A stretch of 64,000 nt of DNA from the NCBI GenBank assembly GCA_964612665.1, contig CAZTCI010000001.1, positions 508,896-572,895 of the forward strand, read 5' to 3'. This document shows positions 1 to 24,000 of the stretch, one piece after another. Source of the DNA: an uncultured Planctomycetales bacterium (GTDB taxonomy: Bacteria; Omnitrophota; Gorgyraeia; Zapsychrales; JAHFFX01). The translations under genes and the position numbers were made by a program. The notes beneath the pieces are model-generated. The model did not search any database and was not told where the DNA came from. It saw nothing but the letters and a program-made list of their open reading frames with translations. Numbering within the stretch: the stretch's first letter is position 1; each line of letters opens with the position of its first letter.

Positions 1-3000
1 ATGCAGCACACTTCCTAAACTGTAGTAATTGGGAAGCGGTCGCGTTAAAACAGCGGTCAAGAGACCTTCGACCCAGGCGAGGCGAATGTCGACGTGCTCT
101 GTTAAAGAAGTGATTTGATAACCAGGCTGGCTTTTAATAAATTCCCACTGCTGCTTGATTTGACGCACAAATGAAACGACGCGGTCAAACACCGACTTGA
201 TTTCGCCAGCTATATTGTCGTGCTGTCTTTTAATTGTTTCGTTGATCTCTTTAATTAAGTCCATTAGGTTTTCATAACTGAACTCTTCTTTAATGGCCAA
301 TGAACTTTCTCTTTGAGTGGCAGCATCAGTTATCTCATCCCAATAAGACTGCACAGTTTCAGTAATAAGCTCCAGGGCGTTTCTCACATCATGCAAGCTG
401 AATAGCATTACTGCTTCAGTTTCTTTACCTTCTTCTTTATTCTCCGACGGAGGGATCTCCTCTCCAAAAAGACCGGCCACCAAATTACAGAGTCTTTCTC
501 GTCCAGCGATCTTCGGAATACGGATGACCTTACCTTTATAATCTTGGTTAGGTTCAACTTCAGTCCAGTATAAAGAATCTGTAATACCATACCCTCTAAA
601 ATCATAAGCCAGGATATCGTCGTCTTCACCACTTCGAATGATCATGGGATTAGGGAATCCGATTCTTTTCATTTCCACAATCAATTCAATGCCCGCATTA
701 TTCTTTCCCATCTGATTATCCGTCAACAATAAGTCAACGAGTTTTCCTTCTGCCAAAAGCTGATGATACGTTGATAAAGCCTTTTCCTTGTTGGCAGCCG
801 TATATACTTGATAACCTCTTTGTATTAAATCATTGGATATTGTCTCAAGCACGTCTTCGTCGTCGTCAACCAGCAAAATTAAGCGTTTATACGCCTGAAC
901 ATTGGGAGTTAAAATGGATAAAAGAACAATCATCATTAACCAATCTAACGACACAAAAATGCCTAATGTGGCTCTGGACTCCACTCGCGTTGAATTCTCC
1001 AACCCATTGAACCACCGTTCGACAATTAGCTCGAAATTCCGCAGTTTCGGATCGAATTGCGCTCTCATTTGGATCAGAAGCGATTGGATTTCCTCAATAT
1101 CTCTGAGCGAATTCATTCTAAAATCGGCTTCAAGAATTTTTCGTAAGGAATCAATTAGATATTGTTTCCCATCGGGGATAAAGGCCTTAAGTAATTCTAC
1201 GATTCTGGTCCTCGAGAATCCTCTATTCATCAAGCGCAAAACATGTTGGTTATTTAAAAAGGCCACAATATTAATTGCCGCAAGAATGTCGACATCTTCT
1301 AGGAGGAAAAGCATTTCGTTTAGTGAAATAAATTGCCCGGCTATTCTTAAATGCCAACTGAAAGAAGTCTTAAATTCTTCTTTTCTCGGCAGGCGATCCG
1401 CTTTATTTACAATCCGCATAAAACGCGCCAGCGAATTGATGCCCATTAGATAACCATCAAACGGTCCTTGTTTTAAGAGTTGCATTGCGAATATATCAGT
1501 CAAAAACTGCGGCGTAAGATCCTTTGTGTCCGTCGTCGAATAAAGTGGAGAGCTACGATTGAAAAGCTCTCGAAGGAACTCATAATAGGACAACACATTT
1601 TTCTGAATGTCCTGATAATCAGAAACTCCCGCATCAACAGCCAGCGCCACGGCCTGGCCAAGCAAAGCCAAGTACTGCGGCTGGCTGATTCCGACGGGTT
1701 CAGTGAGTCTCCATAAATCAGAAATTAGCGTGTCGACACTTACTGGAATATTATCTACCCCAATTATGTGCTTGAATCGATTGAAGCTGGCAGCGACCAG
1801 ATTCTCATCGTTCCTAGATTTATCCAACCAAACTTTCTGCCACTTTTCAACCGATGAGAAGAATTCCACCTGAACAGCCGCAGGTTGTCCAATATCAGCA
1901 TCTAAATTCTCCTCGAGAATACGACCGTTGCTCAACACCAAATAATTAACAGGAAGCATTCGGATATAATCCAAATACATCAAACGATCCTCATCCCTAA
2001 AATCTTCAATCGCCGGTTCGATGAGAATGATTTGGATCGGTACTTTGAGACCAAACACCGCCTGCATGAGGGCAATAGCAAACTTCTTAAAAATGCAGTC
2101 AAATGCGGTACTGCCGATCAAAAAGACAGTCAATTTCTTGGAGTCTCGCTCTTGATTTTCAATTAAAGATTTCAAAAACTGGGCGGTTGAATGTCGCGAA
2201 TTGCTTGCGTGCCAGCGCTGAATTATGCGGTCAGGGCCGACGGGAGGATTCTCCGATTCGATGGCCGAGGAGAGAATTTTGCAAGGTTGCTGTGCCACTG
2301 AAAGTTCTTTCACGTCAACCGTTTTTTGATTCCACAAAATGGAACGTAAAAGATTGCCTGCTATTTTTGCGGCACTTCCTTTTGGCGAAGCCGAATAATC
2401 ATTAACAACATCGATTCCAATGCCCCGTACCGCCGCGATAGCTCCTACTGATACGAACAAGCCTGTCACAGCGCTTAAAACTGTCGGCAAAATCTGCGCC
2501 AGCATCCATAGGAAGAAGGTTAGAATATCACCGTGGGGTAAAACGATCATTTCATAACTTTCTTCATCCGACGACATAAATAGTTCTTGACCTTCCAACT
2601 CTTCTTCTAACGATGACAGCCCTTGAAACTCCTGCGTCAGATGTTCCCAGCTAAGTGGTATCTGTCTTTCTTGTGCCTGTATCATGACCAACTTTGCTTT
2701 TTCTTCATCCACACCTAATTGTTGAGCCAGGGCTTTGGGATTATTAATTAGCTCGTACCATTGTTTTTCTGTTACTTGTTTTTGCAAACGCCAGTAGCGA
2801 AGTAATTCTTGGGAGTGACCAAATTTCGCTTCCAATAAGCGTTTAACCACGTTTCTAAAAACAGCTATTACCATGTTATAAGTTAACGCGCCTAGGGCCA
2901 TGAGATAAAATGAGAAATGGAAAGAATAAACTGCTTTTGCTTTTGCTTTTGCTTTATCTTTATCCATCTTGAACTCTGCATCGGTAAATGCCAGCAAATC

Positions 3001-6000
3001 TGTGAATATAGAAATTCTGACTTGCCATTGACTGGAAAGTTTATTCCACGCTGTTGGCTTGCCATCAAATGTAATGATTGATGGCAATTCGTAAGATTGG
3101 CCCTGGACTTCTGAAATCCAATATTGTCGTATCCGGGATTTACCGAGAAATGTTTCGTCACTTCCAACAACAACGAGTTCTTCGATCAGTAATATTTCGA
3201 TAAAAACTCCCTTATCTTTCGCATAATCCATAATAATAGCGGCGGCATTCAAGAGACAATCGCCATATTTCCCGCCGAGCAGAACAACCTGAATACCGTT
3301 TTCTTGGAGAAGGAGATCTAAGAATTTATAAATACGCTGACGGTCTTCTTTAGAAGATTCATGAATTTTTTCGGGCTTGGGTTCTTCTAATTCTTGAACT
3401 ACGATCCCACGCTTTTTTAATAAAGTAACCAAAGATTTAAAAATCGGCTGCATCTCTCTTCCCAAATCACCAGAAACGCTACGATAATCCCTAACTTCGA
3501 AAATTCCAATTGTGAGAGACCTGATTCGATTTATAGCTACAAAAGATTCTTGAGATGATGTGTATTGATTTCGGCGTTTTTGTCGTTGAATAATAATAAA
3601 CTTGCCAAATTCAAAGATAACTATGCCCAAAATAATACTAACCATTCCCACAGTAAATCCCAACATCCCGGCCGTTTCTTTGGTGGCCTTTAAATAAATA
3701 ACATCCGCCGATAAATCTTTATGACCACCCACATTGATAATCATCTGCTGTTCATACGCTAAAGAAAGCGCGGCCGCTTCGTTGATTTCAAATCCGGCGG
3801 ATTTGACCTGAGCGATCAGTTGGTCTTTAAGTTCGCCGAGCGGACCAAAGGATTCTTCAATCATTTCACCATTGAAGGAGACGAGATGTTTAGTTGCCTT
3901 AATAATATGTATTTCACCTCCATGGGAAAGGACGTTATAAACCTCAGATAAAACTATGGACGGCCTCGTCGATTCAAGCACGAAACTAAGCAAGGCCACA
4001 TCAAACGTCTCTGGCGCAAACGACAAATGCTGGGCGTCTCCATTCACCCAGAGACCATCGCTTACTGTGTGTTGCACGATGCGTATCTTTGAGAAATTAT
4101 TATCTAATCCAACAACGACATTCCCCTGTCTTCTTAACTTACCGGCGATGCCGCCGGAACCAGTACCTACATCCAAAATACGATGACCGCTCCCAATTTC
4201 CTGCAGATACCAAAACGAGAGCATAAAAGAATTATTAATAGTGTGCCGCAACAAATCCTCCAACGTTATGATGATGGGCTTACGCACGGCGGCAACAGAG
4301 ATCATTACTACAAGCAGCATCCATTTTATTAATCCGACGAACCAGATCATCGAAATCAAAGAATAAATATCTACATACAGCGAATTATATTGGCCTTGTT
4401 TATAATGTTCATTCGCACGCCTGATCAATTCTTCATGGATCCGATCACCAATCGGAATCATCCCTCGCCGGTGATTATCGGCCAAATATCCGAGCGCCTC
4501 TGCCAATGTTTGCGCGGCGATGCCGAAAAATAGGCGGACATCATTTGTGCCCATTATGCGGGCCGCGGGATTGGGCGCTGGGGGTTTTTCACGCGCGATA
4601 AACTGGCGGATTTCTTCCAGGACATTGAAGACTTCGGTGAGTTGTTTGAGTGTCTTGACCGATAAATGCGGTTGCGGTTCAACAAAGACAATTGAGTTGA
4701 CCAAGGCCAGCAGATGGTTTTGAATTTGATATGCATAATTATCCAGGTCTTTTATATTGGTCTGCTCGGCAACATGCATTTCATAATCTAAATCTTGATT
4801 AGGAAGATCAAGGATTTTGATCGACAACAGCCCTTTGTGTTGCATCTGTTCCAAAGCCGTGTACAAGGCGGCCATTGATTCCATGAAACCTTCACCCGAC
4901 GGAATATAAGTTTGATTCTTTAATTTCGGACCTTCGCTTCTCTTATCTTTCTTGGGCACAGACTCTTTCTGCGTGTAAGGTAAGAAAACGGCGCCTAATT
5001 TTTGGTTGTCTTTCTTGCCATAAAGGAAAAATTCAATCGCCAGCTGCGGAAAGACCCGGACCGTTTTGGGCAAAGCATCAATAGAAAATCTTTGTATTGT
5101 GACGTCCGCTTTCTTAATCGAGACATACTTGGGGTCCTTAAAGAAAATGACCGCTTCTCCATAATCCGTTGAAATCAGGAACTCAACCTTTTCGCCGGCT
5201 GCAAGATTTTGCTCAACCGCTTTCAAATTGATCGTCAATTCAGACTGGGAATTCTGTTCAAGTACTTCTTGTTGGGAGATCGGCTGTCGTCGAGGATGAT
5301 AAGAAGCAACGTCGAATGAACTTCCTTCCAGCAGCATAAGGATAGTTACGACCAAATAGATATTTTTGAAAAGTTGGAATGAAGATTTAAAGCGCGACGC
5401 GAAAACAGCAATTAAAACTAACACCGCGATAATTACCCAAAACTCTTGTGAATGAATAAGGGAAAAATTACTTCCCTCATCAACAGCATTCAAATCTCCA
5501 TTCTTGGCTCGAACTTCCCAAGTTTTATCAGCTTGTTGGTAAGAATTCTTTTGAATCGCCTCTCTAACTCTTTGAGTCAAATCATTTTCGTCGATGCCGC
5601 CAACGTCGATCCAATTCACGAAGGCAGCAATAATATGCTCCTGAAATTCCTCCGAACTTGCCGACATCCTCACTCCGATTTCCATAAATTCTTTGGCCGC
5701 CCTTTTGAGTTCTTCAATGGCTTGACTGCGTAATGACAAATCCTCGATGCTTCTCGCCAGCGTCCATCTCAGCTGATTGTTTAAATACCGTATGAACGTC
5801 TTTAATTTCTCCATATCTCCCTCGAGTAACTTAATTTTCCATAATTGATTGGCCAGCCGGCTGATCGTTTCAAATGCCTTTTGCCAGGTCTTTTCCGACG
5901 ATGAAAGCGAAAGACGCTCTGCCATTAAAAGCAAAGTCTCATCCAAATATTTCAACTCATTCGATGGATAAAAAAATAAATAGCTATCGTAATCATCCAT

Positions 6001-9000
6001 GCGTCCCATTGCGTGGCTATGATAAAGATCTCGCTCGGGAACAAGGGCGATATTCAAAACATAATCTCTGAACGGTGCTTTTTCATAACTGCAATTTTTT
6101 TCGTATCTAAGCCAACCATCGAGATTTTCCATCGCCATTGAAAAAGATCCACGAAGTCCCGGGTTCGCCCTCCAAGCAACGATTTTCAGTAAGAGCTCTT
6201 TCAGTTTGTGATTTTCAAGTAACCGGCCCGTCGCTTGTCCTTGCCAGTTTAGTTCTTCCACATTAAACAACATCTGCGCCAAATATTGCGGAATCGAATT
6301 TAGTCGCCCTTCGGTCCCCCAAAGATCCAGGGCATTTGTTGACTGAGGATCGTTCGAGATCGCAGGATCAAATGTTTTGAAGTCCAGCGCCTCTTTGAGC
6401 ATCCATAACGTTAGATCCTCATAAGTAAAATCGGAAAATCCGCCATTACGCAAAGACAACGGCTGCTGTAATTGTTCACTCATAACAAAATAAAGTCCGA
6501 TCAATCGTCGGAGGCCTTGAATCAGCGGCGGGAAGTCAATCGGATAAGTTCTTTCTTTATCAAAGTGCATTCCAATTGTTCGCACATGCAACAAAAAGAA
6601 TATCGATGTCCAGGCGGTTAACCATTGTTCTTTCAGTTGTCCACCTGCCCAAAACCACATTCGTCGGGTTCCTATTTCAAATGGTTCGACATCCTCAAGC
6701 GAAGCCAAGCGCACAATATCCTGATTGGGATGACCATACTTTGATAACCAGCCTCTGGCTTTCCAATACCGACGCAGACAATCGCCGATCAATGAAAGCT
6801 CTTGCTCCGAAAGTGGGAGCAAATGACCATCTCCTGTCTCACTATCCATTCTTTCAGAAGTAGCATTCACAATTAGATAACCTAAGAGCTTTGTGAAACG
6901 TTGACTCTCGTGAGTGAGAGAATCAAAAATGGTTGAAGCATTAGCATTATGCAGGCTATACAAAACATATCTTCTCTGCTTTTCGTTATAATGTTCCGTA
7001 TTCAAATCTATCTTAGAATCTAACGTAAATTCCCACGCAGGTGGAAGTAACATGCCTTGCGAATTGATATACCCTAGTTGAACAAGATCATTAAATAACT
7101 GTGGCAAGTCTTTGTCAGGAACAATCCCCTTAAAACTTTTCAAGCTTACCGCATCATATTGATCGAGGAGGTTTGTCAGTGTTTCGATCCATTGCGCAAC
7201 GGGCCGCGATGTATTCTGAGCATTGGAATCAGTTAAAGTAACTTTCTGCTGTCTGACTGAGAGACGACGCCAGAAACTCTCTCCCCATGACAACTTCAGC
7301 ATCATCAAAATCCCGAAGACAATCAGCGCAAGCCATCCCCAACTTCCTTCCGCACCCGTCGTTGGCCAGAGAATCAGATGGCTGCTCAATTCATTTCCCG
7401 ACGCTGATTGAGCACTCAACATCACGATCCCCATCGCAGCGGCAATCATTCCGCCGCGCAGGCGTCCCCAAAATCCTCGTACTAAGCGAATTGCTAACGT
7501 AACAACGAGACCCGCAGTAATGACGGTCAATAATCGATTGAGAATAGATTGCAAAAGGTTTGAAAAAATAGGGTTGTGCTGCAGGAAGGAAAGAAGCGGA
7601 GTATCTTTTTTGCCGACGGGCGGGGCGTTGGGCTGCATCTTAGCATAGTGCCACACAATCAAAATACTAACGCCAATTAAAATCAATAGATATTGCACGA
7701 GTGAGTAGGTGTCCATGTTGAAAATGTTATTTGTTTTAGTCTCCCGATCAAAACCTCCATCCCGTTCGGCGAGCATCAGAAAAGCCGTCTCGGCGATGTG
7801 CATGTCGCTGATGCCGTGATGCAGATAGATTTTATGCACGCTGCGCGTCGAAAGACCGTTTCTGACGAGGCCCAGGTCCCAAACGCCCTGTCCTAACCGC
7901 AACCGATCACCGATTCCAGCGAGAAACTCCGGCGATGCATCCGCGACGGTAACAACCGGGGTGAACTTCCGTTCAGTCTTTGGAATTAATTTTTCTAATT
8001 GTTCGAATAGATTTTCTCTTCCTAACCGTCCAAGAAGAAGATTGGGGCTCGTCACCACAATCACATTGGCGTAAATGGGATAATTTTTATGAAGTTTCAA
8101 AAGCTCGTCGGACGCGGACAAGGCGGCCTGGACCATAGGACCGATGGCGACGATGTTAACCACATTGTCATCGGGATGGTAATCAGGAAGATGGCTGTAA
8201 TCGACGAGCCGGTAACCGCCTTTGAGAATTTCTGGGCCGAGACGCTTGATGGCGGCGGGTTCATTAAGGCCGGAATAAGTTTTCTGTTCCCGCAACCGCC
8301 GGAACAATCCGCTGCGTTCAACCAACAGGCTCGATGCGCGGATATACACGGCGTTACGCCCGTGGTCATGGCCGGTCAACATAAGTTCAAAGGTTTTTTT
8401 CAATATATAATCTAACTCGTCAAGAAAAGCCGGTTCCCACATAACCGTGTTGGGCATCGCCCGGCCGATGTCCGCCGAGACACTCGATTGATGTTGAGCA
8501 CCGTCGGTGGCCAGCGTTGGGCCGGACGGTGTTCCGACAGCAATAAATTGTGAACCCCAGTACTGGGCGTAAAAAAATTGATCCAGCGCCCGGCGGAATA
8601 AAAACATATCATAGATCGTAACAACCGGAATCAAACGCACGCCAAACAAATCATAAGCCTTGCCAAAAGCCGCCGCCAAGGTCACGGCGTTCATTTCTGT
8701 AATGCCAATGCGTAAATGATTTCCCGCAAATGAATCGGCGCTGACAACACCTTGAGTGGCGCCAGGAGCAATCATTCCCGTAGATGATCCAACATCCGGA
8801 GAAATCGTGACCAACCGCGGCGCTATTTTCTGCCAGAAGCGATCGTCTTCGGAAAGGTCCGCCGCCGCCGATTGACTGAGTAGACCTTTCACCCTATTAA
8901 TCGACATACCCAGATATGTCTGCGTTGGAATTCTCCCGCGGGCCGGTGAATAAAGTTTTTCCGGCCAGATTTGATTCTTTAATTCTGCTTCAAACGCCGC

Positions 9001-12000
9001 GCGGTTTGCATCGATCATTTGCTGCGCTTCGGCGGCTTCATGATCTAAACGTGAACGGACATTCTTAAGTGTCTTAAACTCGACGGAAGTTTCATTGAAA
9101 TTGGGGAATGGATTATCTTGCGGCATGCCTAATTCGTTACGGACCTGCGCCAATTCTTCGGGAGTCAATAACTGCGAATGGTTTCCTTCCTGACCAATCA
9201 TCGGTCTTAGACCCCAGCCTTTGATCGTATGCGCAATAATTACCGTCGGGCGATCGCTGGCGCGGGCTTCGCTCAAGGCTTTGATTAACTCAACCAAATC
9301 ATGGCCGCCCAAATCGGTAAAGAGCTCATAGATTTTTTCATCGCTGTATTTCTTCAAGAACCGCTTTATTGGCCTTTTCCTTTCCAAAGAGAGTTTCTTA
9401 TTCTTATCATCCAAGGGAAAAGGCCTAATATTGACTTTTGTTTCTTCCTTTGGATTCACAAAAGTCAATAAAGAAGAACGTTGTTCGATCATCCAAGCGC
9501 GGATTCCGGCGCCGTTTTGAGCGGAAAGATTTTGGTAAACTTTCTGGTCGATTGTTTCCATAACTTTCCTAAAGACACTTCCCCCTCGTCGGGCAAAAGC
9601 CGCTTGCAATTTTCGGCCCCAGCGCAGTTCAACGACTTGCCATCCAGCCGCCGCGTACATTCCGCGCAGTTGATCCAATTTCCAGTTTTCGGTATTTCCG
9701 TCGAGTGATTGGCGGTTGTAATCGACAATATGCGTCACGCGGTCCAAGTTAAATTCTTTCACTAACGTCAGAATCTCCCGCAGGTTTCCTTCTTCAGATT
9801 CAGCATCACCCAAGACCGCGAAGAAATGCGAATCAGAAACCGCATGGCCATGCGCCTTGAGCCATTTCCAAACAACGTTAAGTGCTAAGGCAACCGCCGG
9901 CCCTATGCCAACCGAGCCCGTCGGAATTTTGACGCCGTCCGGGTCCGCCATTCCCGGATACGCGTGCAGGCCTGGTTTGTCTAATTCATCCGTGTTGACT
10001 TCCGGATGCTTGGCGATGAAGGCGGCTTTTAATTCTTCAAGTTCTTTTAAGACTTCTGGCGCAAGACGGCCCCTGATATCTTCAGCCCTGAAATCAACCG
10101 GCAGCCGGACAGCGTTATCACGCAAACGATAAAGTGTATCGACGGGTAATCGACCTAAAAGATATTGAATGGCATGATACACCGGCGCGGCGTGCGGTTT
10201 GTGGGCGACAAAATCATGACCGCGCATGACAGCCAGCTCGAGGGCGATCATAATGTGCAATGCAGACGCGGATGCAGCCTGGTGCCCGCCGGTTTTAGGC
10301 AGTTCATATTTAATTTTATTGGCTTCATCAATTTCACCGATTGAAATCCCAAGCGCCCGACGGGCGATGCTTTCTAAAGCTTCGATGTCCTTCGGTGCAA
10401 ATCCTTCCGGAATTTTATCATTTCTATTTCGGGGAGGCCGGTGTCCGGATGAGCTCATTGCAACAATCATCATCGTGGACAAGAACAACGCAGCCACATG
10501 TCCACCTACGAAGTAGGACACAGCCAATAGTCCATCCAGTGCCAGCGCGATGAGGACAAGCGCAGTTGCAAATACGGTGGAGAGGTTTTGATCTGAGCAT
10601 TCTTTTATTCCATTTTTTGTTTTTTTGGTTTCCTGAGCTGAAAACTTTTTCCACCAGGCAAACGTTTCACTCAAACCCGTCCCAATATTCTTTTGTCGTC
10701 TCAACTTGTTGACAATCAAAATGATTAATGTTATGTTGGCGTCGAAAAGATCATTGATCAATAATTGCGTGGCCCTCTTTGAAAGATGGGAGAATCGTAA
10801 GTGAAGATCTGGGAATTTGAATGGGACAACTGGAATATTGAGCATATTGCTAAACATTCCGTAAAATCTCAAGAGGTAGAAGAAGCTTGTTATCGCCGCC
10901 ACGTCGCTAAGAAAACTAAAGATGACATTTATCTTGTCTATGGTCAAACGTATTCTGGCCGTTATCTTTTCATCGTTATTAAATATAAATCTAAAGGAAT
11001 TGTTTACCCTATAACCGCTCGAGACATGACTGATTCTGAGCAGAGATTCTTCCTTAAACGGAGGTAACATATGATTAAGAAGTCTTCTGTAATCCCAAAA
11101 TTTAAGAATGTCGCCGATGCGGCTGAATTCTTCGATCAACATGATACGACCCAGTTTCTCGACGAATTGCAACCAGCGCATCTTAAGTTCCCTAAGCCCA
11201 AGCATCTTTTGATCACCTTGAAACCTAAACAAATAACGAGGCTCAGACGCTTGGCCGACAAAATGGGTAAACCTTCCGATCAAATTGTTGAGCAATGGAT
11301 CACCCAAAAACTTGCCGAAGGGTAATGATCTGCCCAATGTGGCACGGCTCAATTTCTTTACAATCTCTTTAAAAACGCCTTTCGCTTTATCTGAGGATTT
11401 GGTTCGAATCGTCAGTATCAACAGCAACACATCAACGGCCAACACAAGGAACATCAAATGTAATCCCGGTCCCGGAACAAAATATCCTTTAAACACAACC
11501 ACCGGACGTTCCTCATCAGGCAGAAAACCTAATTCCTCGCGGATCTCCTCGGGAGATATTCTTAAAATATGTATGGGCTGAGGATGATCTTCAAAATATT
11601 TTAAGAACAGGCTTGTAATCGTTTGTCCGTTATCAGAAGCAATATGAAGACGGCCCAGAATAAAAAACGTGTCTTTAGCAGCTTTTCGGCCGCGCGATAA
11701 GATATTGATCATATTGGGGAACATGAATGGTTCCCTTAGGTCAATAGCGAATCTAAAGTTCTCCGAGACATTGATCCCTTTCAAAATTTCTTGAACAGCG
11801 GGCTCGGCCTGGCCGACGACATGATTTTCGCGTTTGGCTCTGGCCATGAGGGCTTTTATAAAAACAACAGTCAAATCACGCCAAGTTGTCAAGTCTTTAA
11901 GCATGTCCGCTGAGTTATCCGGGGGCAATGTTACGATCGCGGAAAAAACGAGACTGTTCCGGGTGTTGTAATAAAGAGAAATGCGTCTGTATAACGTTGT

Positions 12001-15000: not shown

Positions 15001-18000
15001 AAATTTCGGCCCGCGCAAATTATGCTTTAAAATATTTAAAATCCTTTCGGCTTCTTCTTGCATCTGGACATAAGAAATCTGGTCTTCATAAATCTGACCC
15101 ATGAGTATCTCAATCAGCTTTCGTTGATCTACATTTATTCTTTCCTCTCTCCAAATTCTCTCGAGGATTGAAGATGTTCCCGACAACTGGACAACCGGCA
15201 TCAGAGTCTCATAAAATTGAAACACCCTCTTTATCATTTCTGATATTTTTTCTGTTCTTTGTCCTTCATGCTGAGGCTTGAACCAAATATCGACTTCCGA
15301 CGTCACAATAAAATTCTTCATCTCTTCGTAATTGGTATTGATCTTTTCTCGAAAACTCTCAATCTTTTCTAATATAACGTTAAAGACTTTGTCCCACCCG
15401 ATTTCAGCTTCGGTTTTGTTTTCATCGGCCGATTTTGTGTCTCCCTCTCGATCCCCTGCTATGCCTTCCGAATGATTTTCAGTGACGATTACCACTATCA
15501 CTGCTCCCACCCACAACATAAAAGAAATGACCGAGAGATCTAAGAAGGAATGCTCATTGTTCCGGTTTCTGTTTCTGAAATTTCTCCTCCGGCCTGATGA
15601 ATTAAATCTTTCTGTCAACCGCCGTAGATCCTCTAAGTTTGCACTCATGCTCAAACCGTAGTCATTAAAAATATCTCTCAGCGTTTCGGTGACTTTGGAA
15701 ATTCCAGAAAAATCGACCTCTTGGCTCAATGAAAGCATTTCCAAGTTATATTGCCGCAGCCAGCCCTGAAATTCCGCGGGGGTGATTCCACGGGATTCCA
15801 AAGCCTCCCAAAGCCGGAGTAATACAATTCCCATTTCTTCGATTGTTTCCGATTGCTGCCGTTCTATTAAATATTCTCCGCTTGTCGCGGGTTCTGGCAA
15901 TCTTGCCGGTTTTTTTCTTGTTTTTTCCGGCCGGGGAATTCTATGGCGAGGAAAGGCATTGTAAACAGCGCGCTGTATATTTACGAGTTCAGTCACTCCG
16001 CTGCTGATGGCATTTTCAGCCGCATGCAATGCCTTTGTGAATTTACTCCGGCTGGAATTGAAAGACTCGAGGAGCCATGGAATAACTTGTTGGTTCAAAA
16101 TTTCTTCACCACGGCGTCTGGCTTCTTCGCTTAAATTAACCTGATGGGATAAAGAAATTCTCTTATTCATCCAGCGGTCTGCGACGACTAATCCTAAGAA
16201 TTTATATTCAGGATACTCATAAAGATAAACACTGTAACGCGGCTCGTCTTCATTCAATTCGACTAACCGGTATGACCTGCCTTCGCCCCGAAAATCTTCA
16301 TAAATTCCTTCACCCAAATCTCTCAAAGAAAACCAGACAAACTCTCCATCTCTAATCTTGAAGATATCCTCCAGCCATCTTCTTTCTTTTGTTATCTGAA
16401 CGAAATACTTTCCGGCCTGCAATTCTTTGGGGGTGGAATTTTGGGGATTAGGTTTCCGGCGTGTGACTAATGTAAACCACAGCCATTCACTCTGATCGCC
16501 GCGTGCCGTAACGATTTTGGCTTTCAGGGAAACATAACCTCGAGTTCCCCATGAATACCAAAGATCAGCGAATCCGCCTAAATACGCGTCTCCGACGTAA
16601 ATTTTATCTAAACGGTAAAGACCTGTAGATACTCTTGGGTCAACAGCTTCAATCCCTTGGCCTTTCTTAATAATCATGTCGAAACCCTTGCGGTGAAAAT
16701 CAGCGATGTCTTTTCTCACATGACTACTCCGCGCTTTAAGCAGCTTTTGTTGCTTTCCTTGAATGCCCCAATAGTGAAGAATCGGGGAACGTTGTAATTT
16801 TCCGCCGATATTTTCTTCAAACCATACCGCAACATACTCGGAATAAACTGAAGACCAGCGCAGCCCTAAGTTTCCATAACGCTTTCGGACTGTAAACGTC
16901 GAATATCTTTTTCCAAAGAGCGGAATCTTTCCGTCGGCGGTAGTTTTAACATTCTCAATCTTAAGCAATTCATATCCTTGGGCAGACCATCGCTGCGCCA
17001 GTTCAAGACTAATGACACTGTATTGGCCCAAATTTTTTTCACGTTGTCCTTCGCGTTTCGATCCTTTAACGACCAGAATTAAACGCTGTTGACGATCGAC
17101 CTCATGCAGCACCATTTCCTGCTTCACTCTTCTCCATAATTTTGTCCACAACCGTATCCAATCTCGACGGCGCGGATAAATCCGTCCAATTTCAATATCA
17201 TTAATAACTCTGGCACTAATGTCTGCCAAAAGGCCGGCGTCTTTTTGGGACATTCCTAATGACTCCCGCACGGCTTTTAATCTCTTCCCTGGTTCTTGAT
17301 AGAAGTGATCCAACAATATCTTCCAGTCTCGCACCCCCCATCTTACCCGTGCCCCTTTTTCTAATCCCTTAATTTTGAAAGGAGTGGTATTGGATAAGTC
17401 AGCGATTTTTTGCGGCGAGAGTTCTAATATATTCCTGAATAACTTTAACTCTCGTCGGGCTTCTTCATACATTGTATTCAACAATAATGCCAAATCATCG
17501 GCTTTCCATCTGGCATTCTTTGACTTTAAATCATTAATTCTATTTCTACTGATATGCGCAAGAGCCGCGAGTTCTTCTGGCGACATTCGCAAAGCTTCCC
17601 GCAATATCTTTAATTGCCGACCGGCCTCTTTATGCAGTTTATTCAATATAATATTCCAACGGTCAACACTCTCCCTAACATGACCATTCTCTAAAGCACT
17701 AATGCGTCTGGCCCTAACCTTGCTCAAAGCACCAACATCTTTTGCCGTCATTCTCAAAGACTTTCTTAATACCTTTAATTGCCGATGGGCCTCTTCATGC
17801 AGGTCCTCGAAGTTCCATAATTCCGATCGGGACATGTTGAGTAATTCTCTGGATCTCTCTAACAGTTCAATCGATTTTTTATCATCTTGCCCCTGTCTTT
17901 GGGAAGAAGCCGCCATGCCAAGAATCACTAAGGATAAAACGGAGTATACCATCCATAAATTGCTTATAATTTGAACAACCGTTAAGATAATAATCGTCGT

Positions 18001-21000
18001 CGGTAAAATGATCAAGATTTGGGCAGATGAGGTTTTGTCGCGATAAGTCTTTTCAAATTTTCTAAGTGATTTCTCGGTTTTAGAAAGGACGTCATTATAT
18101 GAAACAACCATGAAGACCGCTGCTGATACAAACATCAACAACGGCAAAACAAAATGCCCAGTTCCCCGGACACTTTCCCATCCGGTAAAGATCGGCACCA
18201 GAAAGGAATTTTCCACCTCAACATCGGAAGTTGAGGTCATTTTGCTCTGATTTTGCAGGATCCGAGCTATCCGGGAAAGATAGAGAACATAAATAACGCT
18301 TGCGAAACCAATAAGCAACGTGAACAATTCTCCATTGAAAGCAATCATTCCGAAACCAAACAACTTTGTACGATCTTCCATGAATGTTTTAAGGAAATCT
18401 CTCATCTTTTCTTGAATTTGAGATCGAAAGATATCCTGAACCCGGCGAGGCATAATATTCATACGGGTGCCCGCTTGTTTCCATGCTTCAAATTTTTCTT
18501 TGGTGAATTCTGCCATGAGCCATTGATCTTCTTCGATGGTCTTCAACATGCCACCTTTTTGGGGGTCAAACATTTCACCCAAAACTCTTGAAAAGTCATT
18601 CACATCAAAAGCGACCATGCGACCCAGCTTTCCATCATGAGAAAATGTCAGACCGTAATTTTCTCGCCAATTATGAAAATCGCGATCAACCAGTCCATAT
18701 GTCCAAATCCGACGCGTCAAATTCGAGAATTCGTTTTGAATGTGCCGAAGCTCCATTTGCAAAGCACTCACCTCATCCCACTGTTTATGTTTCTCAGAAA
18801 TCTTTATACGACGGGCAATGGCATCCAGCACTTCTCCAACGGGATGCACGCGTTCTTGAACAATCACATAAGGGAAACTGGTAAGTTTCTCATCCACGAC
18901 AATCGTCAAGTTATTTAAAATAGTCAACGTCATGGCAAAAAGATGGCCCAAATGTTCTTTAACCAATAGGTATCCAGGCAACACTTCTCTCTCGAAGTCC
19001 ACGTCGGCCTTCGGGACCTTGATAATAAGATTTGGAAACGCATAGGAGTAATATGCTTTCATCAGCCCGCCTTGGTCCAAATAATGAAAGGTATGACCTC
19101 GTAGAATACCTTCAACGGTGGTGATTCGAATGTGGTCAAGGTGTTCCTGTAAAACAGTATCCTCTATTCCCATTCTACGCCCCCATTGCATCAACCTTTC
19201 AGGCCAGCCCTCCATATAATTGTCCAATAGCGCTTCCAGAAGAGCATCTTTTAAATTGTTCCTGATCCGACGTGATATAGGTTGGAGGTGGCGTTGAATT
19301 AGTTTTTGATATAACCATCTGAGTATTAATATTAGAGTAACAGCAGTAACTGCGATCAACACCCCTACACGCCACCCATGCATCAGCTCGCTAGAAATAA
19401 GCTGGGCGTTGGATTTTTCCGTTGTTACATCAACCTGCGGGGCCGAAACAGATGAAAACATTTCATCCACCAGCCGTTTGGCTTCCTTGGCCGCATCCAT
19501 GCTTGAACTCATTTTTCCCGAAAAAATGGAAATCTCTCGCGGACTTAAATGCTGAACCGTCGTCGGCCGCGCCGCATTCTGAACCGAACTCACCAGAAAA
19601 TCTTTGAGGGTAAAGATCGAACCAATATGGATCGGATTGAAATCGTGGAAGAATCGATGAGCTTCTTCTTTGATTTGGTCAAATGCCGTCACCGTTGGAT
19701 TCCAGATGATATCGCGTCCCAGTAAATCTTTATACTCATCGGGAATTTCTGGAAATTTGCCAACGTTGAGATGATGAATCGAGTGCTTCACATGAGCGAT
19801 AAAGTGCGCATTATTGCCTAAAGGATTGATCCCGACAAACGGCCCGTCCATAATCAAAATACTTTTGCCCCGGAATGCCGGAGGAAGAAGGACGACAGGC
19901 AACTCAAAAACTTCGAATTGATAGTTTTGCTGATTGGCCGGTTCCGCAATGAACCGATTAATATCGCTGTAAACGGCGTAGACAACGGCATCATAGTTCT
20001 TTAATTTTTCCGGAGTTGCCTCCTGAATGAGCACCTGCACATTGAATTCCTTAAGTTTATCAACGGAGATCTCCGCCAGCTTGCGGATGTTCATAAAGTC
20101 TTCCCCAACAAGCAGCGATAATCCCACAGAATTTTGTTTTAACACCTCCGGATACTTTGTCTCGTAAGGCAAATTAAAACGATTTAATAAAGTCAAATAC
20201 TGCTCGGGCGTAACCGCGCTTCCTTCCGCGGCGATTGCATAGTATTGTTCCAAACTCAAAACCGCTTCACCGAAGACACTCAAAAAGCTTTCACGAGAAT
20301 TAATGACTTCTTGGACAGTTTCTGGACTGCGCGGGTGATGATAGCCGCGATGCAAGCGGCGATCCCAATTGCCGGACACGCCGCCGAAGAGTTTGTTGCG
20401 TTCATACAAAGTCACATCGTATCGAGAATCTTGAGCAATAAACCATGCGGCCGTGATCCCGAAGATTCCGCCTCCGATGACAGCGACTTTGCGTTTCGAT
20501 GGAGCAACAAACGCAGAACGGGACGCCGAAGGAGGTATCCCGGCATCGGCACTCAAATCGAAATCAAAGTATGGCTCCTCAAGCATGTCATCCAAATCGA
20601 TTCCCTCGAAGACCTCTCCCGAATTATCATTAGATTGAACAACTTTAGGATTCACGGGTTCTTCATCTTTCCAATTCCATCCGCCCGCTGCGATCTTTTC
20701 ATCAAACAACCGATGCGGATAACGCATAATGACCGCGTTGACGCCGGCGAATCCGCCCATGCCGTCGTGAACATCGTAACGGCCGCGGATGATGTATTCG
20801 CGATTCCAACGCACCGCTCCGTTTTTCTCGTGATAGCCTTGCGCCGCGTCGGGACTGTAGGTCAGCAATTCTTCCAGAGCATCGCGCCAGGCTTGCAAAG
20901 CTTGAATGTAAATGACCGCAGTGCCGATCCCGCCGACTTGCTTGCCTCGCACGCGATAATGATCGACCCGCGGATGTTTGGCCACAGCCAAGACCGATGG

Positions 21001-24000
21001 AATCGGCGCTCCGACGGAAAAATTAAATCTGACATTGCCATCGTTGTCCTGGATTCCTTCTCCAGCGAGCGTAAAGCGATTCGTCAGCGTCTGAACGTGT
21101 TCCAAAAATGTGCCTCGAAATTCCTGCGCGTCACCATGCTGAATCAAGTCGATCATCTCCGGCGTTAGTTTTTTCTGAATGCTCCAGATCACCGCGCCGA
21201 TGTAACGTCGAGTCACTGCCGAGCGAATCATTTTCCCATCGGCATCCAACGGGTGTTCGAAGACCTCCGCGACCACATGTCCCGTTGGGTGATTCAGAAT
21301 CATGGAACGAATTTGACGCGGACGGATCTGTTCGTAGGGCTGATTGACCCACGCGTCGTTATGAACCTGATAAAGTTCAAGGACATTCTCCAACGTCGGC
21401 CAGCGATACACAATCGTAATCCCCTGCTCCGGACGCTCCTCGCGCACGAACAGCGCCAGGTCGTCCAGCGGAATCTGCTCTATATTAGGAAAGAAGCGCT
21501 GCAGGGCATGATTCAATGTCGTGGGGATGTCTTGCCTTTGGAGCGCCAGCGGCGACGGAGCGGTGGACTCAAAATTCTTGATGCGGAATTGATAATATTC
21601 ATCTAAGGTGCTAAACCACGTTGAGAGCGGATGGCGATTGTTCTGGCGCCGAGCCGCTTCAAGAAGGCGGGAAGTTGAGCCAGAGAAGAACATCGTCGTC
21701 AAATGGCCGTTCAGATGGAGAGCTCTGGTATGAAGGATGGATACAACAAGGACTAAAATAATAGCCAAATTCAAAATCATCATCCATCCCCTGTCGTCAA
21801 AACCGTGGATGGCGAGGAAGTAGGTATGGGTGTTAGAATCGGCCGGACGAGTTACATAAGAACTCTGTCTAAGGACGGTCGCAATCAAAGCGAAGGCAAC
21901 GACAATGTATATATTAGAGAAGATACCTCGAACCTTTTTCTGATCTCCTCCGAACGCCTGCTCCATCGTTTTAGTCTCGAGACGGCCGGGATTGAATGGC
22001 GTCCGATCTTCCATCACTTTCCTTAGAATTCTCAACCGCCCGCCCAAGGCCAGTTCGCGGGATTGTCTGGCCGTAATGACATCCACATCCTGATCCGTAA
22101 ATCCGCGGGTTTGGAAATTGGAAATAGGATGCGCGTTAAAATTCTTGAGACGGGAATATTGTGCGTCGGTCAACCGGGCCTTGGCTTCATCCACATAACG
22201 GCCGGACGCAATCATTTGATCGGCTAATCCTTGAGGAGCAAAGACCCCGAATCGGGTCGGATGCTCCCAAACAACAATGATCACTCCCATTGGAAGACTC
22301 GCTAAAAATTCTTCTGTCCATCGCCGCGTCGATTCCAAGGGCGAAATGGTTCGATCGAGTTTGCGCGTTAGCCAAATATAAATATATTCATAAGCAAATT
22401 TTAAAAACACAACGTCCGCCGGCTTTATGTCTCGAACAAACGCTCTCATTTCATCTCTCGACATCAAATCACTCATATGATGATGAAGAGGCGCCAACTT
22501 TTCCAATCGCAGAATCGGATGACCGACGATCCCGACCAATTTTTCTTTCAGTCTTTTAAAACCCATCGTGATATCCCACTCACTCAGCCGATTGTCCACA
22601 GTTGTCATGGACGAAACATAATAACCGGCAAATAAATCAATCCCGGAAAGGATGTTGTGGAGTTGCGTATTGTTACGATTGAAGATCCCGATGGCGGAAA
22701 GGAGTTGTAATTGCAGGAAATAAATTCTGACTTTGATCGGAATCACGCTGTGTACGGTGAGCTGATCCTCACCGAGCCGAATCTGCTCTTCAATTTTACT
22801 GAGGATTTTTCGAACCGATTTTAGTGAATGGAGGAATTTAAATTTGAAAATGGAAACGACCATGAGTAACACGATGGCCAAATTCAAAATCATCATCCAT
22901 ACCCCGTCGTCAAAACCGTGAGTGCCGAGAAAATAGGCTTTGGTGTTGGAATTAGGAACCATGCACGGCATGTTCCACCCGATCATCATGTATCGGTTAA
23001 AAACAGCGATATCATGGTTCCCATCAGGTTTGACACCTCCAGTCATGTGTGTTATTCTTCCTTCACCGGAGGGGGACAACCAATGCATAAACGAAAGGAT
23101 AAAAACATGAACGCCATCAACATGACGGACATCGTCCGCAAGTCGATGCAAGAACTTGTTGTCCCTGAGTTGAAAATCTTGCAGGGTGATGTTCAGAGTC
23201 TCTAGAATGACAATCTTGAGATCAAGGCTGATCTTCGGATCCTCAATAACCGTGTCGACAATCTGGAAAAATCTTTGAACAGCCGGATGGATTCTCTCAA
23301 CAGCCGGATGGACTCCCTCGAGAAAAGGCTGGATAACTTGGATAAAAGGGTTGACGGCCTTGAAAGGCAAATTCATAGCATGCGCGAGGATTTTAAGCTC
23401 GCGCTCGATATTCATGAGCGGCTCACTGCGCTTGAAGTCAAAATTTCTCATCATAATTAGGCAGTGGTTTTGTTGACGAATCATCGCCGGGCCGATTTCC
23501 TCAAAGTTATATAAAGGAAATCGGCCCGTTGTTTTTTGGTTGCTGTATACGATTTTATAGAACGCCGTCACTGTCGAATCCCAGATCATATCGCGCCTAA
23601 GTAAGTCTTTATATCCCATCCCACCGGATTGACCATACCAAATGAAATAAACCAATGCCCATAAAACCAAGGCCACATCAATTCCAACCATGTATGATAA
23701 ATATGCCGATTGAACGCTGTTTTTATTTTGATCTGGCTCAAACGCAAACAAGCGCACGGACAGACGCGAATTCATATTCCTTAAAAGTTCATTTTGCTCA
23801 TTTATGATTTTTTCCAAATTCAACCGTCTCGCGATGGCCGCCGCGCCCACCAGTGCGACAATAACTTGGATCTCCCGTTGACCGGGCAGCCAGTTTTCCT
23901 GAAAATGCAGACGATTCATCTTCTTGATCAATTCTTTCTTCAAATTTAATTTTATTGATCGAATTTTGCCGGCCCGGGACGACAGAGGCACGTCAAAACT

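Follow-up and report, generated by a model that had tools for sequence, protein, structure and literature searches.

BrnT/BrnA toxin–antitoxin genes nested antisense in a giant, uninterrupted open reading frame of an Omnitrophota bacterium

Introduction

Can a complete toxin–antitoxin (TA) operon lie on the opposite strand of another gene without interrupting it and, if so, what keeps both strands readable? The question is raised by a stretch of 64,000 nucleotides (hereafter ‘the window’) from an uncultured bacterium that is named as a member of the Planctomycetales in GenBank and placed by GTDB in the Omnitrophota (Gorgyraeia; Zapsychrales; JAHFFX01). The window spans positions 508,896 to 572,895 of the forward strand of contig CAZTCI010000001.1 (assembly GCA_964612665.1). 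One minus-strand reading frame is open throughout, and a BrnT/BrnA cassette (BrnTA) at 10801–11325 on the plus strand is wholly nested within it. A first-pass annotation, made from the sequence and a list of its open reading frames (ORFs), had drawn attention to this pair and to the unbroken frame across it.

Here, we examine the identity of the cassette, the statistics of the open antisense frame, and the recurrence of both in other genomes and metagenomes. Our reading is that TA cassettes of an ‘ORF-transparent’ lineage are seated in giant genes without interrupting them, to which we assign a probability of roughly 0.75. The component families are known; as far as could be determined, the arrangement is new, comprising complete antisense nesting of TA operons in a giant ORF, phase-specific avoidance of stop codons, and recurrence across metagenomes. 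Full-text literature searches for antisense TA nesting in giant ORFs returned nothing relevant.

The nested BrnTA cassette

The minus-strand frame with codons at positions 3k+1 to 3k+3 is free of stop codons over positions 1–63999 (21,333 codons) and overruns both ends of the window, the longest open stretch in any other frame being 325 codons. The features at issue are the following.

1–63999, minus strand: giant ORF of at least 21,333 codons (stop-free frame; Pfam domain mosaic of enzymes and regulators; hydropathy)
10709–10737, plus strand: sigma-70-like promoter, TTGACA and TATGTT hexamers spaced by 17 nt, a TG preceding the latter (−10) hexamer (10 of 12 positions as in the consensus)
10788–10792, plus strand: Shine–Dalgarno sequence GGGAG, 8 nt ahead of the brnT GTG (read from the sequence)
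10801–11067, plus strand: brnT toxin gene, GTG start, 88 aa and a TAA stop, phase 0 relative to the giant frame (Pfam, homologues, structural model)
11060–11064, plus strand: Shine–Dalgarno sequence GGAGG of brnA, within the last brnT codons (read from the sequence)
11071–11325, plus strand: brnA (CopG-type) antitoxin gene, ATG start, 84 aa and a TAA stop, phase 0 (Pfam)
10732–11325, minus strand: ‘shadow’ segment, the approximately 198 giant-frame codons read from the reverse complement of the cassette, with a peptide that includes LPFGKFLGDPLLNNLIGR (codon score; comparison with a homologous locus)
11407–11463, minus strand: transmembrane-like segment LHLMFLVLAVDVLLLILTI of the giant protein, N-terminal to the cassette (Kyte–Doolittle 19-mer mean 2.69)
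10519–10575, minus strand: transmembrane-like segment VFATALVLIALALDGLLAV on the C-terminal side, followed by a transketolase/PDH-E1-like domain (Kyte–Doolittle mean 2.48)

Judged by its sequence, the cassette looks autonomous and intact, with promoter, ribosome-binding sites, brnT, spacer, and brnA all in place. The spacer between the two genes is 3 nt (CAT). The arrangement of the brnT Shine–Dalgarno region, GGGAGAAT..GTG, is also found in a homologous locus (L008), and the brnA Shine–Dalgarno motif, AAACGGAGGTAA, is nearly invariant in five cassettes (a single substitution in L008 and another in L010). A perfect TTGACA combined with a 17-nt spacer, a downstream Shine–Dalgarno sequence, and an ORF occurs at just three plus-strand sites of the window, that of BrnTA among them.

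BrnA matches Pfam CopG_antitoxin (PF12441) with an E-value of 5e-9 and 37.2 bits, above the cut-off of 28, and weakly matches the NCBIfam BrnA equivalog (E = 4e-4; 20.4 bits against a cut-off of 60). BrnT aligns to the Pfam BrnT_toxin profile (PF04365; DUF497) over all of its 77 positions (1–77) with an E-value of 9.2e-7 and 29.5 bits, and has no NCBIfam match. Homologues of BrnT at 43–66% identity carry PF04365: proteins P0001–P0004 (43–65% identical) have precomputed assignments to this family, and P0002 is named ‘BrnT family toxin’ by NCBI. An AlphaFold2 model of BrnT (pLDDT 93.5; pTM 0.83) was used in a Foldseek search of the PDB, which yielded just two significant matches (probability 1.0; TM 0.69–0.77), namely 7vd7_A from a Salmonella toxin–antitoxin complex and 3u97, the BrnT of Brucella abortus.

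In these respects, the cassette resembles BrnT/BrnA type II systems, in which the toxin gene comes first and a gene for an antitoxin of the CopG/ribbon-helix-helix type follows closely: PF04365 and PF12441 both match, and the predicted fold agrees. It differs in that its BrnT is just 17–18% identical to BrnT toxins of solved structure. The identification of the two plus-strand ORFs as BrnT and BrnA-like genes with a 3-nt spacer, as proposed in the first-pass annotation, is thus borne out by PF12441, PF04365 (E = 9.2e-7), fold, and homologues. No record of the exact BrnT and BrnA proteins was found in assemblies, and no relatives of the cassette were found in viral contigs. Rfam gave no match over 10000–12000, and the search of the window for direct or inverted repeats bounding the cassette found just short matches at chance level.

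Avoidance of antisense stop codons

The start coordinates of brnT and brnA both equal 1 modulo 3; their codons are therefore exactly in register with the antisense codons of the giant frame, and in this register antisense stops can come from TTA and CTA (leucine) and TCA (serine) alone. None of these triplets is found among the 175 codons of the two genes, and the promoter region of the cassette is also stop-free in the giant frame. The window has a GC content of 45%, and in the giant frame TTA accounts for 20% and CTA for 5.5% of leucine codons and TCA for 16% of serine codons, the three together making up 3.98% of codons. At this frequency, 175 codons would be open with a probability of 8e-4, and the 260 codons of 10561–11340, promoter region included, with one of 2.6e-5. 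If the BrnTA proteins are held fixed and their synonymous codons are redrawn from giant-gene usage, 4.4 stops are expected and the probability of an open frame is 0.009 (0.0069 if calculated analytically).

An internal control is provided by the PIN toxin gene at 38375–38842 (plus strand), which belongs to a second nested cassette described below and is shifted by one base relative to the register of the giant frame. TTA, CTA, or TCA is used in 12 of its 46 leucine and serine codons (26%), compared with 0 of 33 in the in-register genes (those of BrnT, BrnA, and the antitoxin associated with PIN; Fisher p = 9e-4). This control is decisive for phase specificity.

What the first-pass annotation had said of this frame holds up well. 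The giant frame does pass both TA genes without a stop (0/175 TTA, CTA, or TCA codons), and the proposed chance probability of about 1e-3 agrees with the codon-frequency null (8e-4), the stricter synonymous-only null being about 0.007–0.009 for this locus alone. A general lack of TTA, CTA, and TCA, which had been named as the finding that would speak against selection, is not seen, given their 4% share of giant-frame codons and their 12 of 46 in the PIN gene. The claim of codon-phase-specific selection is sustained by the contrast between 0/33 and 12/46 and by recurrence in independent homologous cassettes; this recurrence indicates that selection, not composition, holds the frame open. Because BrnTA is in register, the choice among synonymous leucine and serine codons can keep the giant frame open without any change to the TA proteins, and the fixed 3-nt spacer ensures that both genes stay in that register.

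Related cassettes in other genomes and metagenomes

Metagenomes were scanned with a three-sequence BrnT alignment (a six-sequence alignment was too divergent), which yielded thirty-five loci. With the shadow peptides of the two window cassettes as the query, a full HMMER search recovered nine predicted proteins whose reading frames pass through homologous cassettes, the longest being of 6,735 aa. Five further BrnTA cassettes, with toxins 50–66% identical to that of the window, were found on four metagenome contigs and in one public metagenome-assembled genome, and none of them has an in-phase antisense stop. Four of the five lie inside long open antisense frames, one of which is a complete gene of 6,735 aa.

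The contig of the closest BrnT homologue in the databases (L001; 1,116 nt) likewise has 3 nt between the two genes and encodes an antitoxin of 84 aa in the corresponding position; one of its antisense frames is stop-free from end to end, and the other five frames have 13–30 stops each. In L001, L008, and L009 (BrnT 64–66% identical), the antisense frame is open over the full contig (approximately 1115, 1588, and 1061 nt, respectively), with 8–40 stops in the other frames. L050 (GCA_964402785.1) contains the complete 6,735-aa gene, with Complex I genes around it and with brnT and brnA on the opposite strand, 3 nt apart and codon-in-phase. In L010 (58% identical), the antisense frame is open exactly over the cassette.

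Altogether, six cassettes (window, L001, L008, L009, L050, and L010) are free of in-phase stops, each with a probability of 0.002–0.008, whereas ten non-nested homologues have 2–10 such stops each and spacers of variable length. Homologues with 50% identity or less in the metagenome scan likewise have ordinary antisense stops. The nested lineage therefore differs from free-standing BrnTA systems in its antisense position within another ORF, in its fixed 3-nt spacer and single frame, and in its avoidance of TTA, CTA, and TCA, none of which is seen in the free-standing homologues. Most of the nested cassettes group together in a neighbour-joining tree, in which the non-nested L011 falls inside their clade and the nested L050 outside it. 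Between the window and the other loci, homology is limited to the cassettes, the flanks being unalignable both as DNA and in the giant frame; these non-homologous flanks favour mobility of the cassette.

Several observations on individual loci may be recorded here. The 247-aa antisense ORF of L010 (1517–2260 of 1–3503) opens with a signal-peptide-like helix and has as same-strand neighbours a 392-aa ORF and an open frame that runs off the contig; in L010, the nested arrangement is divided into segments, as it also seems to be in P0037 (260 aa). In L050, over 3001–23208, 20 copies of the peptide motif G-A-R-L-[S/A/T] were counted where 0.2 would be expected; they are encoded by varying synonymous codons, and the BrnTA shadow (aa 2281–2421) lies between copies at 2218 and 2455. 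Judged from the sequence, the motif may mark module junctions or sites of proteolytic processing. In L001, direct repeats of the form (T/G)(C/A)A(C/G)CGGCGAGGCGGC at 125–140, 191–206, and 848–863 lie on either side of the cassette and, read in the open antisense frame, specify AASP(L/V). These AGCGGCGAGGCGGCG repeats of L001 have no equivalent seen in the window, and similar (A/G)(A/S)SP motifs border the shadows of L009, P0034, and P0036.

The closest homologues of both window cassettes (P0001 and P0006–P0022) are almost all on very short contigs (0.6–3 kb), on which the gene caller reported the small TA genes and not the open antisense frame. Nested cassettes and their host ORFs are thus annotated inconsistently and easily missed.

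The constraint on each strand

If both strands of the cassette are read, which of them is conserved as protein? The codon log-likelihood score of the giant frame falls to 0.9 at 10801–11040, compared with a window mean of 20.9 ± 6.3 and a first percentile of 4.7. Between the window and L001, BrnT is 65% and BrnA 43% identical, whereas the same alignment columns, when translated in the giant frame, are 31.6% identical. Identical giant-frame columns number 54 of 171, and 49.6 ± 4.7 are expected from TA constraint and stop avoidance (P = 0.20); where residues are conserved, their codons agree about as often as expected of saturated synonymous sites, and both loci nonetheless stay stop-free. As giant-frame identity over the overlap equals the expectation from TA constraint, the frame is kept readable and not kept as a particular protein sequence. 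On this comparison of sequences, the TA genes are the primary coding sequence at the cassette, and the giant frame is constrained to staying open alone.

The earlier suggestion that both strands are under coding constraint therefore stands for the giant strand only in a minimal sense, namely that it must stay open, and fails with regard to its amino acids. A strict antisense overlapping pair would have purifying selection on the amino acids of both frames; here, the TA frames are conserved and the giant frame is not conserved beyond expectation. The shadow of BrnTA, a stretch of about 200–260 residues without amino-acid constraint, sits between two transmembrane-like helices of the giant protein, and both TA cassettes of the window are flanked by such segments.

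Long antisense ORFs arise most easily in codon register, and reported antisense overlaps usually consist of a short, poorly conserved antisense ORF within a conserved gene. BrnTA and the giant frame resemble bacterial antisense overlapping genes or ‘shadow ORFs’ in that two opposite-strand ORFs use the same DNA in codon register. They differ from the usual case in that it is the nested genes that are conserved and well characterized, the overlap extends over their full length, the host frame is barred only from stops, and the arrangement recurs across lineages.

Other plus-strand ORFs of the window may be mentioned for completeness. The longest open stretch (20191–21168; 325 codons) is in register, has a local GC content of about 50%, and is without family match, promoter, or Shine–Dalgarno sequence; it is probably a shadow ORF. 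The ORFs at 902–1453, 20245–21168, 25721–26194, 31060–31518, and 50996–51487, together with ten more, have no family match and were treated as shadow ORFs. A codon-score signal at 52261–52680 (plus strand, phase 0) was set aside, since no ORF underlies it.

Second and third nested cassettes

The three plus-strand sites at which a perfect TTGACA, a 17-nt spacer, a Shine–Dalgarno sequence, and an ORF coincide belong to BrnTA, to a PIN cassette about 27 kb away from it, and to a third unit, as follows.

38147–38842, plus strand: second nested antisense cassette, comprising promoter, antitoxin-like ORF, and PIN toxin gene (promoter, Pfam, homologues)
38147–38175, plus strand: promoter TTGACA-17-TATACT (11 of 12 consensus matches)
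38200–38391, plus strand: antitoxin-like ORF, 63 aa, phase 0 (conserved upstream ORF in homologous loci)
38375–38842, plus strand: PIN toxin gene, phase 1 (PF01850, E = 9.5e-9, 36.4 bits, above the cut-off of 23.6)
23030–23460, plus strand: probable third nested antisense cassette (promoter TTGACA-17-TATTCT, Shine–Dalgarno sequence GGAGGGGG, ORF)

The acidic catalytic residues of the PIN protein (D12/D14, E59, D113, and D132) are invariant in fourteen sequences. The antitoxin-like ORF has no Pfam or NCBIfam match, and a conserved ORF of 58–63 aa overlaps the PIN start in all four homologous loci. The PIN homologues closest to that of the window (44–66% identical) are nearly all on short contigs. 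In L043/L044, L045, and L046 (PIN 51–56% identical; four contigs, three of them independent), the antisense frame is open over the full contig (1267–2934 nt; GC 0.37–0.38), and no contig-wide open antisense frame is found in the control L049, which has a more distant PIN homologue in an ordinary operon. The phase relative to the antisense frame is constant within each family (0 for BrnTA and +1 for PIN). The PIN cassette (38147–38842) resembles VapBC systems, with a small upstream antitoxin-like ORF that overlaps the gene for a PIN toxin with four conserved acidic residues, and differs from them in the lack of a Pfam or NCBIfam match for this ORF and in its antisense position in a giant frame at a conserved +1 phase, which its closest relatives share.

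In the third unit, an ATG at 23083 opens a 40-aa ORF that ends at an in-frame TAG (23203–23205) and is followed in the same frame by 84 codons of coiled-coil sequence. Just generic coiled-coil Pfam matches were obtained, and TTA, CTA, and TCA are absent from its 27 leucine and serine codons. The unit could be a pseudogene, two ORFs, or a case of read-through.

Content of the giant frame

Pfam matches in the giant frame include Transketolase_N, Transket_pyr, Methyltransf_11, GerE, Response_reg, several HTH_3, DAO, HATPase_c, and Sigma70_r4_2. Matches to SecA_DEAD (E = 2.6e-4; 20.8 bits, below the cut-off of 24.6) and P-loop_SecA (E = 6.4e-4, below its cut-off) are weak. Approximately sixty-five transmembrane-like segments, about one per 330 aa, were identified as hydrophobic 19-mers with a Kyte–Doolittle mean of at least 1.8, that is, by a hydropathy scan and not by a topology predictor. 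An 880-aa portion of the giant frame comprising flank and shadow has no homologue among 5.8 billion proteins, and a comparison of the flanks with GTDB representative genomes found no relatives by protein patterns and no exact match to a 50-mer. Taxonomic marker genes are absent from the window.

Giant genes of Omnitrophota have been described as containing SecA-like domains and numerous transmembrane helices (West-Roberts et al. 2023, 10.1101/2023.11.21.568195) and modules of methyltransferase, HATPase_c, and response-regulator type within mostly unique sequence (Nielsen and Lui 2026, 10.64898/2026.06.07.730766). The ORF of the window is like them in its length of more than 64 kb, its many transmembrane-like segments, its methyltransferase, HATPase_c, and response-regulator domains, and its homologue-free sequence; the weak SecA_DEAD-like stretch may be a further likeness. 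It differs in its nested genes: term searches found antisense or nested genes unmentioned in both papers, and their few mentions of TA systems are in other contexts, such as genes that flank giant loci (10.1101/2023.11.21.568195; 10.64898/2026.06.07.730766).

Read along the giant frame, the BrnTA cassette is followed directly by two transmembrane-like helices and then by a thiamine-diphosphate enzyme domain of transketolase/PDH-E1-like type (8395–10250, minus strand; Transketolase_N at E = 4e-22, Transket_pyr, and PDH_E1_M, the first two at approximately 8395–9960), which is unusual content for a membrane-threaded giant protein. Elsewhere, the frame contains diverged tandem module duplications, with two HTH_3 modules about 1 kb apart (44134–44253 and 45145–45258, minus strand), a near-identical pair of transmembrane segments about 1.1 kb apart (21733–21789 and 22846–22902, minus strand), and about four Xre-like HTH repeats in a row (17149–17604, minus strand).

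Alternative explanations

The open antisense frame might be a by-product of composition, due to chance or to a genome-wide rarity of TTA, CTA, and TCA. In-register antisense frames do tend towards long open stretches, the high-GC homologues L017, L018, and L035 have antisense open spans of 500–600 nt, and at the window locus taken alone the probability is only about 0.007–0.009. We nevertheless give this explanation hardly any credence, since in this window of 45% GC the three codons make up 4% of the giant frame and 26% of the leucine and serine codons of the PIN gene, since six cassettes are stop-free at a probability of 0.002–0.008 each when ten non-nested homologues have 2–10 stops apiece, since synonymous sites are saturated in the sole pair tested (window and L001), and since a 64-kb open frame is impossible by chance. 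The converse explanation, that the TA-like ORFs are non-functional shadows thrown up by the coding sequence of the giant gene, has in its favour that other in-register plus-strand ORFs without family matches (e.g. the 325 codons of 20191–21168) look like just such shadows. Conservation runs the opposite way, however, with TA frames 65% and 43% identical to those of L001 and the giant frame 32%; moreover, homologues exist as ordinary free-standing TA pairs, the confident BrnT model fits solved BrnT structures, the PIN catalytic residues are invariant, promoters and Shine–Dalgarno sites are present, and the giant-frame codon score collapses over brnT. This explanation, too, strikes us as extremely improbable.

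Two further proposals accept both the cassette and the open frame and are harder to set aside. Under engulfment, same-strand genes would have fused across a pre-existing opposite-strand TA pair, with the antisense stops then purged and without any insertion into a giant gene. The giant frame does read as a chain of modules that resemble former genes (a transmembrane helix, then an enzyme or regulator domain), and L010, in which three minus-strand ORFs follow one another and the central one (247 aa) covers the cassette alone, could represent the state before fusion. Yet the homologous cassettes have flanks without detectable similarity in any contig, which fits mobility better, an argument tempered by the very rapid divergence reported for giant-gene sequence (10.64898/2026.06.07.730766), and the conserved phase and 3-nt spacer belong to the cassette lineage. 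We consider engulfment unlikely. Alternatively, the frame may be kept open for the movement of ribosomes and not for a protein: full cover of the transcript would serve, for instance, against premature termination or mRNA decay, and the peptide encoded across the cassette would be irrelevant or processed away. The shadow segment without amino-acid constraint agrees with this, the GARL copies on either side of the shadow in L050 (20 against 0.2 expected) could mark sites at which it is excised, and cleavage of giant proteins by peptidase domains has been suggested as a possibility (West-Roberts et al. 2023, 10.1101/2023.11.21.568195). On the other hand, no comparable GARL-like junction motif is enriched in the giant protein of the window, and away from the cassettes codon usage in the giant frame is normal and domains can be recognized in it. 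We regard this proposal as quite doubtful; it is in any case a refinement of our main explanation and not an exclusive alternative to it.

The reading that TA cassettes are seated in giant genes without interrupting them has points against it as well. The profile comparison suggested in the first-pass annotation gave a clear result for the antitoxin (PF12441 above cut-off) and an E-value of 9.2e-7 for the toxin, but at 29.5 bits BrnT remains below the PF04365 gathering cut-off of 34.5; furthermore, a sequence profile of BrnT found no relative among PDB sequences, which made the fold comparison necessary. L011 belongs to the nested clade yet has three antisense stops, and the antisense ORF of the stop-free cassette of L010 is just 247 aa long and bounded by stops, so that the association of nesting with freedom from stops is not absolute. 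Most of the replicate contigs are 1–3 kb in length; what is seen on them is a long open antisense frame, which is not necessarily a giant one. Searches for relatives revealed no orthologous giant gene with or without the insert, and thus no ‘empty site’. Finally, we infer translation through the cassette and TA activity from sequence, and the benefit that we consider for the giant gene below is argued by analogy.

Proposed mechanism and comparison with known systems

In the best-supported account, selection against truncation of the giant ORF keeps the cassette stop-free over long divergence. Ribosomes would translate the giant mRNA through the cassette, with the shadow acting as a tolerated spacer between transmembrane helices, and the TA pair would be transcribed head-on from its own promoter. 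BrnT would be an ordinary ribonuclease that is neutralized by BrnA. The cassette lineage would persist in giant genes since just those copies that preserve the frame and lack stops survive there.

Chromosomal TA cassettes stabilize gene arrays such as superintegrons. By analogy, it is plausible that the cassette protects a long, costly gene from deletion; another possibility is that it exerts its effect by antisense interference with giant-gene expression. As in superintegrons, promoter-bearing TA units are scattered over a long, deletion-prone, and costly locus (at least two in this window). Integron cassettes differ in that they lie between attC sites in a non-coding context and not inside a reading frame, and a stabilizing role in the giant gene is hypothetical. 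More tentatively, the TA lineages (BrnTA at phase 0 and antitoxin–PIN at phase +1) might be specialized residents of giant genes, transparent in antisense and perhaps mobile between giant ORFs, that serve as deletion guards or as stress-responsive antisense throttles; we put this forward as a speculation with less than even prospects.

A second parallel is offered by the Rickettsia palindromic elements, which Ogata and colleagues reportedly described in 2000 as selfish DNA inserted in-frame in protein-coding genes and translated along with them. In both cases, a foreign segment lies within an unbroken ORF and is, or in the present case would be, translated as an extra peptide, and just frame-preserving, stop-free copies persist. 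Those elements are short non-coding repeats, whereas the passenger here is a complete and apparently functional two-gene operon on the opposite strand with a promoter of its own.

Significance

Giant bacterial genes are a recent and poorly understood subject, and debate continues as to whether each yields a single translation product and by what means such long ORFs withstand mutation and deletion. Two or three antisense cassettes without one stop in this window, with similar ones elsewhere, are strong sequence-level evidence of continuing selection for an uninterrupted frame, and shadow peptides and strand-wise transcription provide concrete handles on the translation of giant genes. As gene callers that accept a giant ORF suppress the genes nested in it, such cassettes are systematically missed in annotations.

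For TA biology, giant ORFs are a genomic niche that has gone unreported; for the study of overlapping genes, the locus is a natural example in which it can be measured cleanly how, and in which direction, each strand is constrained. If the reading of BrnTA and its relatives as transparent residents is true, they would represent a new mode of coexistence between a mobile or selfish module and the gene that hosts it, and would add a new layer to giant-gene biology.

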